A stretch of 32,000 nt of DNA from Candidatus Saccharimonadota bacterium (GCA_046350815.1 JAXLZO010000001.1:330001-362000), one strand, 5' to 3'; positions 1 to 32,000 are shown, counted from the first letter of the stretch. Notes: generated from the sequence alone by a model not told the origin. Numbers and translations are program-made.

Positions 1-2762
1 GTAAGCAAGGAAAAGAAATCAATTGAGATTCCCTAAGTAGTGACGAGCGAAACGGGATCAGCCCAAACCTGCGTAAACTTATGGGTGCAGACCTTGAACG
101 CAGGGGTTGTAAGAGTTATTTACCGTCTTCTGCAAGGACGGACAAAGCGATAGTTTGGATAGGAGAAGGACTTGGGAAGGTCCGCCAAAGAGGGTGAAAG
201 CCCCGTAACCGAAATCCTTATTATCTATTTGCAATAATTTCTTGAGTAGCATCAGACACGAGAAATCTGGTGTGAAGCTGGGGAGACCACTCTCCAAGGC
301 TAAAGAGTACACAAGATCGATAGTGAACAAGTACTGTAAAGGAAAGGTGAAAAGAACCCCGGGAGGGGAGTGAAATAGATCCTGAAACCCTGTGCCAATG
401 AAGAGTAGGAGCCTGTATTTATACGGGTGACTGCGTACTTTTTGTAGAACGGACCAACGAGTTAGCTGTATGTGGCAAGGTTAAGGGAGAGTATACCCGG
501 AGCCGTAGGGAAACCGAGTCTGAATAGGGCGATTTTAGTCACATGCACTAGACCCGAAACCCATGCGAGCTACTCATGTGCAGGCTGAAGGTGTGGTAAC
601 ACACACTGGAGGGCCGAACCATTTAGAGCTGCAAGTCTATTGGATGACATGTGAGTAGGAGTGAAAAGCTAATCGAGCTGGGAGATAGCTGGTTCTCCGC
701 GAAATATATTTAGGTATAGCCTCATAAAGCAACAGTCTGAGGTAGGGCTCTGATAAGGTGAGCGGGTCGCGAGACTTAGCAATCCTTGATAAACTTCGAA
801 TGCAGACTGCCAAGTATTATGAGAGTCAGACAGTGACGGAGAAGCGCCATTGTCAAAAGGGAAACAGCCCAGATTCCTGTCTAAGGTCCCCAAATATACA
901 CTCAGTGGAAAAGGATGTGAGGTTACTGAGACAACCAGGATGTTGGCTTAGAAGCAGCCACTCATTCAAAGAGTGCGTAATAGCTCACTGGTCGAGTGAT
1001 CTTGCGCCGAAAATTCAACGGGGCTTAAGTGTATTACCGAAGACGGAAACTCCAATTTTATTGGAGTGGTAGCGGAGCGTCCTCTATGCCGATGAAGGTG
1101 AGTCGTAAGGCTTGCTGGAGGTACGAGGAGTGAAAATGTTGGTATGAGTAACGCGAACAGAATGAAAACTTCTGTCACCGAATGCCCAAGGTTTCCGATC
1201 CAACGTCAGTCGTGGTCGGGTTAGTCGGTCCTAAGGTGTACCCGAAAGGGGAAACCGATGGATAGCAGGTTAATATTCCTGCACTTCAAATGTTCGTTAT
1301 TACGACGTGGGGACATATCGGGTCATTGGAGAGGGTTATAGATTATCCTCAAATTATACAACAGCGGACACTTAGGAAAATCCGGGTGTCATTACGAAAG
1401 AGTATAGTTTCTCTCAAAGTGAAGGCGTAAGCCCGAGCAATGAGAAGTCCTACAATGATTTGGTATCGAGAAAAGCCACTAAGGAGAACAAATGAAACCG
1501 TACCGCAATCGAACACTCGTGGGCTGGTGTGAGTACACCAAGGTGGACGGGATAACTATGCTTAAGGAACTCTGCAAAACAGCGGTCGTAACTTCGGGAT
1601 AAGACCTGCCTGGAGAGTAATTCACTCTTCAGGCCGCAGCTAACGAGCCCAGGCGACTGTTTACCAAAAACACAGCTCTCTGCAAACACGTAAGTGGAAG
1701 TATAGGGGGTGATGCCTGCCCAGTGCCAGAAGATTACGGGGAGGGGTGCAAGCTCTGAACTTAAGTCCTGGTGAACGGCGGCCGTAACTATAACGGTCCT
1801 AAGGTAGCGAAATTCCTTGTCGGGTAAGTTCCGACCCGCACGAATGGCATAACGGTCTGGGCACTGTCTCAAGCATAGTCCCGGTGAAATTGCAATATCG
1901 GTAAAAATGCCGATTACTCGCAGCAAGACGGAAAGACCCTATGAAGCTTTACTCTAACTTGGCACTGATGTATTCAGTTTGATGCGCAGGATAGGTGGGA
2001 GACTATGAAAGAGACCCTCTGGGGTTTCCCGAGTCATCCTTGAGATACCACCCTTCACTCTGTGTACATCTAACCCCATATTGGGGGACAGTGCTTGGCG
2101 GGGAGTTTAACTGGGGCGGTTGCCTCCTAAAAGATAACGGAGGCGCACAAAGGTATGCTAGTCCCGGATGGAAATCGGGATGGTCGTGTATTCGCATAAG
2201 CATGCTTAACTGAGAGACCAACAAGTCGATCAGATACGAAAGTAGGTGAAAGTGATCCGGCACCAACATGTGGGAGTGGTGTCGCTCAACGGATAAAAGT
2301 TACTCTAGGGATAACAGGCTGATTCCGTCCAAGAGTTCACATCGACGACGGAGTTTGGCACCTCGATGTCGGCTCGTCGCATCCTGGGGGTGGAGAAGCT
2401 CCCAAGGGTATGGCTGTTCGCCATTTAAAGCGGTACGCGAGCTGGGTTCAGAACGTCGTGAGACAGTTTGGCCCCTATCTGCTGTGAGCGTTTAGGAATT
2501 TGATGGGATTTGCTCCTAGTACGAGAGGACCGGAGTGAACGAACCTCTGGTGGATCGGCTGTCGCTCTAGCGGCACTGCCGAGTAGCTACGTTCGGAATG
2601 GATAACCACTGAAAGCATCTAAGTGGGAAGCCAATCCAAAGATGAGATTCCTCCAAGAATTTATTCTTGATAAGTGCCCTTGGAGACTACAAGGTTGATA
2701 GGTTGCAGGTGTACGAACAGCGATGTTCTCAGCCGAGCAATACTAATAGCACGAATGATATT
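1..2762 (+). rRNA. rrl: 23S ribosomal RNA, 5' end cut by window edge
   Basis: Continuous conserved 23S elements. The window opens in domain I (GAGATTCCCTAAGTAGTGACGAGCGAAACGGGA). GGTTAATATTCCTGCAC lies at ~1269-1285, GGGATAACAGGCTGAT at ~2308-2323, the sarcin-ricin loop AGTACGAGAGGACCGGAGTG at 2518-2537, and TGAAAGCATCTAAGTGGGAAGCC at ~2610-2632. The 3' end is approximate (+/-15 nt). Length is consistent with no large insertion or intron. Track ORFs inside it are spurious. Confidence 0.95.
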
Positions 2763-2953
2763 TATGCAAGCTTTTTATTCTTTTTGTTGACTCGTCAACC
2801 GAAAGCAATAAGAACTGATATCATCAAAAAACGAGAGAAAAAACAACAAAGAATATACCTTAAAATATATCTCCTACCTTTCTTCTCTCAAACAACTTTT
2901 CAGTTGGAAAGTAATTTAACTAATCGTTCTATACTTTGTGGTTCTCAAAGACA

Positions 2954-3076
2954 GCATCTTGGTGTTTATAACGCGTGGGGTACACCTGTATCCATTCCGA
3001 ACACAGAAGTTAAGTCACGTCGTGCCTATGGTACTTCCGTTAGAAGCGGTGGGAGAGTCGGTAGACGCCAAGATGC
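2954..3076 (+). rRNA. rrf: 5S ribosomal RNA
   Basis: Helix I pairs GCATCTTGGTG with CGCCAAGATGC. The conserved core CCATTCCGAACACAGAAGTTAAG and GGTGGGAGAGTCGGTAGACGCC are present. It lies ~190 nt downstream of the 23S end. Confidence 0.9.
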
Positions 3077-3276
3077 TATTTTTGAGAGATGAACATACTC
3101 GAGAGAAAGCAGCACTAATCATTGATACACAATCCAGACTTGATAGAATGGAGAAAGATTAATGAAAAGTACAAACCAAAAGAATACGAAACCATTGGAA
3201 GCCACTCCCGACATCCGTCGATAGAGACGCTTCCCTTTTTCTTTCAAGAGATACGCACCAAGATACAACACACTAT

Positions 3277-3353
3277 GGGTGATTAGCTCAGTTGGCGAGA
3301 GCATCTGCCTTACAAGCAGGGGGTCATTGGTTCGAATCCAATATCACCCACCA
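3277..3353 (+). tRNA. tRNA-Val (anticodon TAC), CCA encoded
   Basis: Cloverleaf read by hand: acceptor GGGTGAT/ATCACCC, D stem GCTC/GAGC, anticodon stem-loop TCTGC-CTTACAA-GCAGG, T arm ATTGG-TTCGAATC-CCAAT, then ACCA. Confidence 0.9.
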
Positions 3354-3372
3354 TAATGTTGATTGTAAAGAG

Positions 3373-3408
3373 AAATCCCTTACTTGAAAGAGTGAGGGAT
3401 TTTATTTG
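3373..3408 (+). terminator. Rho-independent terminator after the rRNA/tRNA-Val unit
   Basis: An ~11-bp stem, AAATCCCTTAC (3373-3383) with GTGAGGGATTT (3392-3402), has an 8-nt loop and is followed by a T-rich tail. Confidence 0.7.
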
Positions 3409-30857: not shown

Positions 30858-30862
30858 TTATT

Positions 30863-31297
30863 ATGCAAAAAACACTTGTAGCACCTCAAATTGCTTCCCA
30901 AGACCGCCCTTGGTTTCTCATCGATGCTGAAGGTAAGACTCTTGGTCGACTTGCAACTCAGGTTGCTCGATTGCTTACTGGTCGCAATCGTGTGGATTAT
31001 ACTCCGCACAATGACAATGGCGCTCACGTTATTATTCTGAATGCAGCAAAGATTCGTGTTTCTGGATCGAAGATGCAACAGAAGCTATACCGAAGCCATT
31101 CTCAATTCATGGGTGGACTCAAAGAAGTGAGTCTTGAGAGAATGCTTGTAAAAAAGCCTCTCTTCGTTCTTGAACATGCAATTTCAGGTATGATTCCAAA
31201 GAATCGACAGCGTCAAGACGTTCTTAAACGTCTTCGACTTGAGATTGGGGGAACTCATCCATACGATGCTCAAAAGCCTCAAACTATCACTCTCTAA
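30863..31297 (+). CDS. rplM: 50S ribosomal protein L13
   Basis: Intact 144-aa ORF: RPWFLIDAEGKTLGRLATQVARLLTGRNRVDYTPH, with GMIPKN near the C-terminus. Confidence 0.9.
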   Translation: MQKTLVAPQIASQDRPWFLIDAEGKTLGRLATQVARLLTGRNRVDYTPHNDNGAHVIILNAAKIRVSGSKMQQKLYRSHSQFMGGLKEVSLERMLVKKPLFVLEHAISGMIPKNRQRQDVLKRLRLEIGGTHPYDAQKPQTITL

Positions 31298-31311
31298 GCC
31301 TGTCATTCGTT

Positions 31312-31704
31312 ATGGAAAAGAAATATTTTTACGCAATTGGTCGTCGTAAGACGGCAACTGCTCAGGTTCGTCTCTTTGCTGATAAGGGTTCATCTCTTAT
31401 CAATGGACGTCCATTCAATGAGTATATTTCTCGCTCAGACCTTTTCGCTCGACTTCTTAGTCCATTGAAAATTGCATCTTTGCTTGATAGTACTCACTTT
31501 GAGGTTCAGGTAAATGGTTCAGGAATCTCTGCTCAAGCTGATGCAATTGCACTCGGTCTTGCTCGTGCAGTTATTCTCCTCGATCCTGCTCTTCGTCCAC
31601 AACTCAAGGGTGCAGACCTTCTGAGTCGAGATGCGAGAAAGGTAGAGCGCAAAAAACCTGGTCTCCACAAAGCACGCAAGGGCCCTTCTTGGTCAAAGCG
31701 TTAG
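31312..31704 (+). CDS. rpsI: 30S ribosomal protein S9
   Basis: Intact 130-aa ORF: GRRKTATAQVRL, GGGISAQADAI-like GSGISAQADAIALGLARA, C-terminus RKVERKKPGLHKARKGPSWSKR. Confidence 0.9.
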   Translation: MEKKYFYAIGRRKTATAQVRLFADKGSSLINGRPFNEYISRSDLFARLLSPLKIASLLDSTHFEVQVNGSGISAQADAIALGLARAVILLDPALRPQLKGADLLSRDARKVERKKPGLHKARKGPSWSKR

Positions 31705-31722
31705 TATTTTACCCTACTTTGC

Positions 31723-32000
31723 ATGCCTACTATTAATCAATTGATTCGTAAGCCTCGAACTGACAAGTCTCGTAAGAGCAAGTCCCCGGCGCTTCAATAT
31801 ATCAAAAACTCTATTGCACGAGATCTTCGTGATCAAGTGGCTCCTCAGAAACGAGGTGTTTGTACAAAGGTATATACAACGACTCCAAAAAAGCCAAACT
31901 CGGCTCTTCGAAAAGTTGCAAAAGTACGTCTTACCAATGGTCAAGAAGTGATCTCTTATATCGGTGGCGAAGGACACAATCTCCAAGAACATTCCGTTGT
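31723..32000 (+). CDS. rpsL: 30S ribosomal protein S12, 3' end cut by window edge
   Basis: [12 protein letters not shown]...[53 protein letters not shown]. It starts 18 nt after rpsI. Confidence 0.95.

Follow-up and report, generated by a model that had tools for sequence, protein, structure and literature searches.

Evidence that UGA encodes glycine in a 32,000-nt genomic stretch assigned to the recoded Gracilibacteria clade

Mycoplasmatales and several insect endosymbionts use translation table 4, in which UGA specifies tryptophan. Translation table 25, in which the same codon specifies glycine, is the code of Gracilibacteria (BD1-5/GN02) and Absconditabacteria (SR1) (Campbell et al., 2013; Rinke et al., 2013; both cited in PMC8629427 and in the gTranslate preprint). 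These two sources also treat the mechanism and history of UGA recoding at the level of the clade, and the gTranslate preprint assigns table 25 to the GTDB class JAEDAM01 (Absconditabacterales and BD1-5), giving the loss of release factor 2 (RF2) and a tRNA-Gly(UCA) as hallmarks of the JAEDAM01 code. Further changes have been reported, with CGA and CGG reassigned to tryptophan in Absconditabacteria and CGG to tryptophan in some Gracilibacteria (Shulgina and Eddy, 2021; PMC8629427). In this study, we analysed 32,000 nt of one strand from a record filed under Candidatus Saccharimonadota bacterium (GCA_046350815.1 JAXLZO010000001.1:330001-362000), hereafter the window. Judging from its sequence, UGA is almost certainly an ordinary sense codon for glycine in this DNA, which would be read with table 25 and with UAA and UAG as sole stops.

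The window resembles the table 25 genomes in having in-frame UGA at glycine positions in most genes, UAA and UAG as its only stops, and a low to moderate GC content of 39%. It also groups with recoded Gracilibacteria in a tree, and its UGA sites are given as glycine in GenBank. Among the sequence features compared, we found no difference from table 25 as described in Gracilibacteria and SR1. The likeness to table 4 extends to the capture of UGA as a sense codon, to a small-genome, host-dependent lineage, and to the fragmentation of table 11 gene calls. The difference lies in the residue, as UGA in the window stands for glycine and not for tryptophan.

In-frame TGA and the residue it encodes

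When TGA was treated as a sense codon, 27 open reading frames (ORFs) of at least 200 aa were obtained, whereas table 11 gave 8. As controls, TAA or TAG was made the sense codon instead, which yielded just 12 and 11 such ORFs, so the gain in long ORFs is specific to TGA. Across 28 curated genes with about 7,700 codons, 123 in-frame TGAs were counted, distributed over 22 of the genes, including those for IF-1, IF-2, S4, S13, RpoA, and MnmA. TGA thereby makes up about 21% of all glycine codons in this set. No in-frame TAA or TAG was found in the 28 genes, and every one of them stops at TAA or TAG, none at TGA. Moreover, once joined across their TGAs, the ORFs cover Pfam families over the full length, as in MnmA (three domains, one spanning 1-202 of 202), DUF4010 (1-209 of 210), PGA_cap (3-255 of 255), IF-2, RpoA, S4, S13, and IF-1. 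The consequences for gene calling are considerable. Table 11 cuts the CapA-like gene into 18 pieces, of which the longest has 84 residues, and public table 11 calls on identical or near-identical contigs deliver IF-2 in three pieces, whereas on a sister contig, called with an alternative code, the protein has 947 aa. A first-pass annotation of the window had stated that the supplied ORF track breaks up most real genes and that all stitched genes end in TAA or TAG, and both statements agree with these data. Its claim that stitching restores a full-length protein every time has one exception, the HAD hydrolase gene at 21280-21897, which carries in-frame TAGs.

That HAD gene, which is truly decaying, is also the observation that favours taking the TGAs as true stops. 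The interrupted genes would then be pseudogenes or products of assembly or sequencing errors, or they would be rescued by occasional readthrough or selenocysteine insertion. Such an explanation would have to cover all 123 TGAs, including those in the essential genes for IF-1, IF-2, S4, S13, and RpoA, where in-frame TAA and TAG are entirely missing. It is also at odds with the conservation of TGA positions across independent assemblies and species, with the independent assembly of identical sequence in several runs, and with the alignment of the sites to glycine and never to cysteine or selenocysteine. We regard true stops as next to impossible. Selenocysteine recoding, as a separate candidate, was rejected on the number of sites (22/28 genes affected), on the aligned residue, which is glycine, and on the lack of an RNA element. 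A permissive Rfam search of positions 3000-32000 returned the rRNAs and tRNAs alone, with no selenocysteine insertion sequence (SECIS) or further RNA element.

Glycine as the residue is indicated most directly by invariant positions of well-known proteins. Eight codons had been singled out in the first-pass annotation, and all of them prove to be TGA in the stated frame and context, on a glycine conserved in standard-code homologues. In IF-2, the codon at 24654-24656 occupies AADE-x-VKPQT, which reads AADDGVMPQT in the E. coli protein, and in IF-1 the codon at 27848-27850 occupies K-x-RI, within the DLSKGRI of PDB IF1 sequences. The S13 codon (28059-28061; MARIS-x-V) corresponds to MARIAGVN and the S4 codon (28854-28856; RYI-x-P) to RY(L/I)GPK in the respective PDB sequences. 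The PP-loop codon of MnmA (complement of 13138-13140; SG-x-VDSS) is glycine in homologues, and altogether five TGA sites of this gene, the PP-loop and four more, fall on glycines that are conserved in MnmA from E. coli and from Gram-positive bacteria. The ABC exporter codon (18705-18707; ER-x-VRLSGGQ) matches GERG(V/L)QLSGGQKQR in PDB homologues, and the SLOG/LOG-like codon (21065-21067; GG-x-SGT) is glycine in 3 of 4 PDB homologues. For the CapA-like codon (8862-8864; HW-x-EEY), alignment column 479 holds glycine in 95 of 113 distant homologues and tryptophan in the remaining 18, which appear to be table 4 translations of recoded relatives. At the listed codons, the IF-2, S13, S4, and MnmA alignments thus display glycine rather than tryptophan or gaps.

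Similar results were obtained when whole alignments were considered. Every TGA of the CapA-like gene that lies in a conserved column of the 113-homologue alignment sits on glycine. The IS1595-family transposase gene has 7 TGA sites, and at 6 of them glycine occupies the column in 82-87 of 88 distant homologues, a set that includes named standard-code Patescibacteria; the three genuine TGG codons of the gene correspond to tryptophan in 120/120 sequences. TGA residues 33 and 62 of RpoA are conserved glycines, and residue 328 lies in a variable column. We also made a small tally of all codons in the manner of Codetta, on the basis of the alignment for the CapA-like protein together with eight relatives in which in-frame TGA is absent or rare. 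In this tally, TGA matched glycine at 8/8 conserved columns, and 60 of the 61 other codons had their standard residue as top match, including TGG as tryptophan; AGG, with only 3 sites, received no call, and CGG had no sites. The log-likelihood over 33 TGA sites was +30.6 for glycine and -7.3 for tryptophan. Tryptophan is nevertheless the runner-up at TGA because public collections hold table 4-translated copies of proteins from the recoded lineage, and the same database artefact makes it the runner-up for GGA, GGC, and GGG. In the CapA-like, IS1595, and all-codon alignments, no TGA site was found in a conserved tryptophan column, such columns being occupied by TGG alone. As far as alignments tell, UGA corresponds to glycine, not to tryptophan, cysteine, or selenocysteine, while TGG remains tryptophan and TAA and TAG the sole terminators.

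Codon exchange, codon usage, and decoding

Comparison with relatives supports the same residue. Among close relatives, 27 of 35 TGA switches in well-aligned contexts are to or from GGN, including GGT, which requires two substitutions, and the remaining switches are singles or pairs with CAA, CGA, TGG, TTA, and AAA. The TGAs of two distant, TGA-rich relatives stand opposite GGN in the window in 26/41 and 40/66 cases. Of 25 window TGA sites compared with four standard-code relatives, 18 face GGN and none faces TGG. TGA therefore drifts as a synonym of the glycine codons and is subject to the constraints that act on GGN.

These exchanges bear directly on the table 4 alternative, that is, that UGA encodes tryptophan in this lineage. 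In its favour, many database copies of the window proteins carry tryptophan at the TGA positions, and two switches between TGG in the window and TGA in a close relative (L020, a contig from a JGI metagenome) were detected, at residue 22 of the CapA-like protein (7491-7493) and at residue 362 of the MgtC protein (11306-11308). However, the tryptophan is confined to close relatives and to sequences from pipelines whose choice is table 11 or table 4, and named standard-code homologues have glycine. All eight conserved columns of the tally are glycine and none tryptophan, the log-likelihood favours glycine in spite of the mistranslated copies, genuine TGG sites are tryptophan without exception, and TGA exchanges chiefly with GGN. 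Hence, we find a tryptophan reading scarcely credible.

The TGA content of the genes differs with expression class. TGA accounts for 7% of glycine codons (14/197) in genes for translation and abundant proteins and for 28% (109/388) in the others (Fisher p = 5e-10), and it is missing from the S11, L36, L17, L13, S9, and AhpC genes. This avoidance in highly expressed genes would be expected if selection disfavours a codon that depends on one, probably scarce, tRNA. On the other hand, UGA might be decoded ambiguously or inefficiently, through competition by tRNA-Trp or residual termination, in which case the five-fold depletion and the TGG-TGA exchanges would reflect a translational cost. We give this proposal a slim chance. 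A slightly slimmer one is given to the related view that UGA is mainly glycine and yet a costly codon, at which wobble or near-cognate pairing leads to some tryptophan insertion or residual termination. The skewed TGA share and the location of both switches in membrane helices fit this view, and wobble at U34 has been noted as a possible source of ambiguity between UGA and UGG in the clade (PMC8629427). Nonetheless, ordinary codon-usage selection against a rare tRNA produces the same avoidance, and among 54 context-filtered TGG positions two switches are no more than ordinary amino-acid replacement could supply. In addition, TGA occurs on invariant catalytic glycines, namely the MnmA PP-loop, the residue before the ABC signature, and the IF-2 G domain, where misreading would be harmful. 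Nothing in the data requires partial ambiguity of UGA. TGA near gene ends was also considered as a signal and dropped, with 4 occurrences in the first 6 codons and 3 in the last 5 against about 2.7 and 2.2 expected.

Some observations do weigh against glycine as the meaning of UGA. At RpoA residue 305, a TGA faces asparagine in standard-code homologues, and about half of all TGA sites are in variable columns that are uninformative on the residue. The two TGG-to-TGA switches, which occur in a conserved neighbourhood, are the only hint of a link between UGA and tryptophan, and each is probably an ordinary replacement of tryptophan by glycine through a single transition. Finally, no tRNA with a UCA anticodon was found in the window, in same-species contigs, in close relatives, at the RpoA loci, or at the loci of IS1595 copies, the scans covering about 41 kb of DNA of this species. 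The loci around the transposase copies contained only a tRNA-Gly(UCC) cluster, in a related metagenome-assembled genome (MAG).

Going by what is described for the clade, a dedicated tRNA-Gly(UCA) bearing glycine identity elements would decode UGA, and RF2 would have been lost, so that UGA would no longer be read as a stop. The glycine identity elements of such a UCA tRNA are G1:C72, C2:G71, G3:C70, and U73.

The arginine codons separate the window from the extended code of Absconditabacteria (PMC8629427). Both share UGA as glycine, and CGG is rare here, with 13 per 10,000 codons (ten codons). The codes differ in that CGA, with 137 per 10,000 codons, is a major arginine codon of the window and falls on conserved arginine in 14 of 15 columns. 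One CGG, at MnmA residue 302, is on the conserved arginine of an RY motif, and in relatives CGG exchanges only with arginine codons (CGN/AGR). Reassignment of CGA or CGG to tryptophan was ruled out on these grounds. The lineage seems to keep both codons as arginine, and its code would be plain code 25 rather than the extended version. In this respect, the window offers one more clean example of code 25 in a lineage with CGA and CGG as arginine.

Source lineage and public records

The window starts with a 23S rRNA gene truncated at its 5' end, a 5S rRNA gene, and three tRNA genes (Val-UAC, Arg-UCU, and Val-GAC), followed by about 29 kb of protein-coding DNA. It is best read as a piece of chromosome from an uncultured bacterium within the Gracilibacteria that have recoded UGA (BD1-5 and relatives). 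The closest RpoA proteins among species representatives are about 60% identical and come from organisms filed under Candidatus Gracilibacteria, among them the oral GN02 group. A contig scan with RpoA found 10 loci, the best again at about 60% identity, and a contig scan with the CapA-like protein found no relative. We built a neighbour-joining tree from S11, S4, RpoA, L17, L13, and S9, in which the window falls in one clade with UBA6164, a second TGA-using MAG, and oral GN02 Gracilibacteria, and a standard-code relative lies outside this recoded clade. With identities to these relatives of only about 60%, the tree does not resolve the branching order among them. UBA6164 is classified as Patescibacteria; Gracilibacteria; BD1-5 (PMC12093946). 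Near-identical proteins carry the NCBI name Candidatus Gracilibacteria bacterium. The tree and the NCBI names thus agree with the first-pass annotation, which had placed the sequence in the Gracilibacteria/Absconditabacteria group.

The same DNA has been assembled independently, with contigs from five sequencing runs matching the window at 100% identity. One NCBI MAG (L007), 99.5% identical, is conspecific, and several ENA, NCBI, and JGI contigs are 86-96% identical. An identical S9 is indexed in 365 blocks of the public assembly collection. GenBank entry MFO0763575.1 (hypothetical protein U0518_01770, Candidatus Gracilibacteria bacterium, on a contig of 1,283,673 bp), the sole database hit of the orphan protein encoded at 19083-19832 of the window, equals that protein and has glycine at all 12 TGA sites; hence, the sequence has already been deposited and annotated with table 25. 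The first-pass annotation had proposed UGA as glycine under code 25, while calling this not novel. The proposal is upheld by four independent lines, by residue identity, by exchange with GGN, by the behaviour of TGG and of the stops, and by the GenBank translation, and the caveat was also right, because the code is known and GenBank already annotates this sequence with glycine. The finding is already known, and nothing is added biologically to what has been known since 2013. Its value is a practical one: any downstream reading of the window must use table 25, as table 11 breaks most of its genes and table 4 turns each UGA glycine into a false tryptophan.

Such false tryptophans are widespread. 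Most public copies of the window proteins, from Logan, ENA, and some from JGI (P0001-P0007, P0121-P0152, and P0242-P0244), have tryptophan at every TGA site, and NCBI entries alone carry glycine there. The tryptophan-bearing copies appear to have been translated with table 4. They introduce a tryptophan minority into conserved glycine columns, as in the 95 to 18 split of the CapA-like alignment, and tryptophan in such columns should be distrusted.

Two further MAGs labelled Candidatus Peribacteria are unlike in their use of TGA. One of them (L016, CAYYDE010000003.1) has many in-frame TGAs opposite glycine codons, 30 in IF-2 and 9 in RpoA, and clusters with BD1-5; the other (L015, CAYUUW010000002.1) has no in-frame TGA. 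The label on the former probably hides a table 25 organism.

Gene content and neighbouring features

The features of the window are collected in Table 1.

Table 1. Features of the 32,000-nt window, with in-frame TGA counts and stop codons of the protein-coding genes
Feature	Coordinates	Strand	In-frame TGA	Stop	Basis
23S rRNA, 5' end cut	1..2767	+			Rfam LSU_rRNA_bacteria, 2420 bits, model 206-2925
5S rRNA	2958..3073	+			Rfam RF00001, 82.6 bits
tRNA-Val(UAC)	3277..3353	+			ARAGORN, Rfam
IS1595-family transposase	3829..4539	+	7	TAG	Pfam PF12762, 5-152 of 153
tRNA-Arg(UCU)	5012..5088	+			ARAGORN
tRNA-Val(GAC)	5266..5343	+			ARAGORN
Putative lipoprotein, no assigned family	5459..7423	+	14	TAG	L020 orthologue keeps most TGAs
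Memo/AmmeMemoRadiSam-B + PGA_cap (CapA-like) fusion	7428..9155	+	17	TAA	Pfam PF09587, PF01875
GNAT-like acetyltransferase	9229..10122	+	6	TAA	Pfam PF13480
MgtC/DUF4010 membrane protein	10223..11638	+	7	TAA	Pfam PF13194 (1-209 of 210), PF02308
Small membrane protein	11643..12116	+	4	TAA	ORF calls
MnmA tRNA 2-thiouridylase	12097..13167	-	8	TAA	Three full-length Pfam domains
NT5C-like 5'-nucleotidase	13152..13766	-	6	TAG	Pfam PF06941
HAD-family hydrolase	13826..14770	-	3	TAA	Pfam
ABC ATPase	14863..15594	-	1	TAA	Pfam PF00005
Dps/ferritin-like protein	16121..16558	+	1	TAA	Pfam PF00210
AhpC/peroxiredoxin	16579..17199	+	0	TAG	Pfam PF00578; exact protein on window-identical (100%) Logan contigs
ABC exporter (membrane domain + ATPase)	17292..19022	+	5	TAG	Pfam; PDB homologues
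Lineage-restricted orphan protein, 249 codons	19083..19832	+	12	TAG	GenBank MFO0763575.1
SLOG/LOG-like protein	20723..21268	+	7	TAA	Pfam PF18306; PDB alignments
HAD hydrolase pseudogene, TAG at 21412 and 21484	21280..21897	+	8		Pfam HAD_2 2-178 of 178 across stops
PfkB-like kinase	21901..22581	+	4	TAA	Pfam
Translation initiation factor IF-2	23073..25895	+	4	TAA	Pfam
cNMP-binding domain protein	25901..26311	+	3	TAA	Pfam
Secreted or membrane protein	26359..27090	+	5	TAG	ORF call; no Pfam or NCBIfam match
Translation initiation factor IF-1	27644..27874	+	3		Pfam PF01176
L36	27895-28008	+	0		Pfam
Ribosomal protein S13	28044..28409	+	1	TAA	PDB S13 alignment
Ribosomal protein S11	28434..28823	+	0		Pfam
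Ribosomal protein S4	28842..29468	+	1	TAA	PDB S4 alignment
RNA polymerase alpha subunit (RpoA)	29491..30483	+	4	TAA	Homologue alignment
L17	30495-30857	+	0		Pfam
L13	30863-31297	+	0		Pfam
S9	31312-31704	+	0		Pfam

The IS1595-family transposase gene is located between tRNA-Val(UAC) and tRNA-Arg(UCU). Homologues 60-66% identical to it occur in standard-code Patescibacteria (Minisyncoccus, Azambacteria) and have glycine at 6 of the 7 TGA sites; hence, the family spans both codes. A standard-code host could not make an intact product from the window copy. Copies of this transposase are mostly found on very short contigs, and the data suggest that the element is multi-copy.

The interval between tRNA-Arg(UCU) and tRNA-Val(GAC) measures only 177 bp in the window (5089-5265). 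In L020, the same interval holds a 5.3-kb island (2500-7700) with serine-recombinase-type, GmrSD/HNH, and EcoRI-like methylase genes. The island looks like a tRNA-adjacent integration site with defence cargo.

The HAD hydrolase gene at 21280-21897 is most likely a pseudogene that is still gathering nonsense mutations. Its TAG at 21484 is CAG in the conspecific MAG, and its TAG at 21412 is common to both. The gene also serves as a control within the window and shows that readthrough of TAG does not occur.

The orphan gene has the highest TGA density of the window, with its 12 TGAs set against 9 GGN codons. Database matches to its product are limited to its own species group, with tryptophan at the TGA sites of the Logan and ENA copies, and all 12 TGAs are kept in a relative with a diverged N-terminus (P0242). 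The stretch of about 0.9 kb 3' of this gene (19833-20722) contains no convincing ORF and no Rfam match.

Upstream of infB, a basic ORF of 66 aa (22716-22916, plus strand) encodes a protein that is 100% identical in relatives whose DNA is 86-92% identical. By eye it resembles ribosomal protein S21, with no match in Pfam or NCBIfam.

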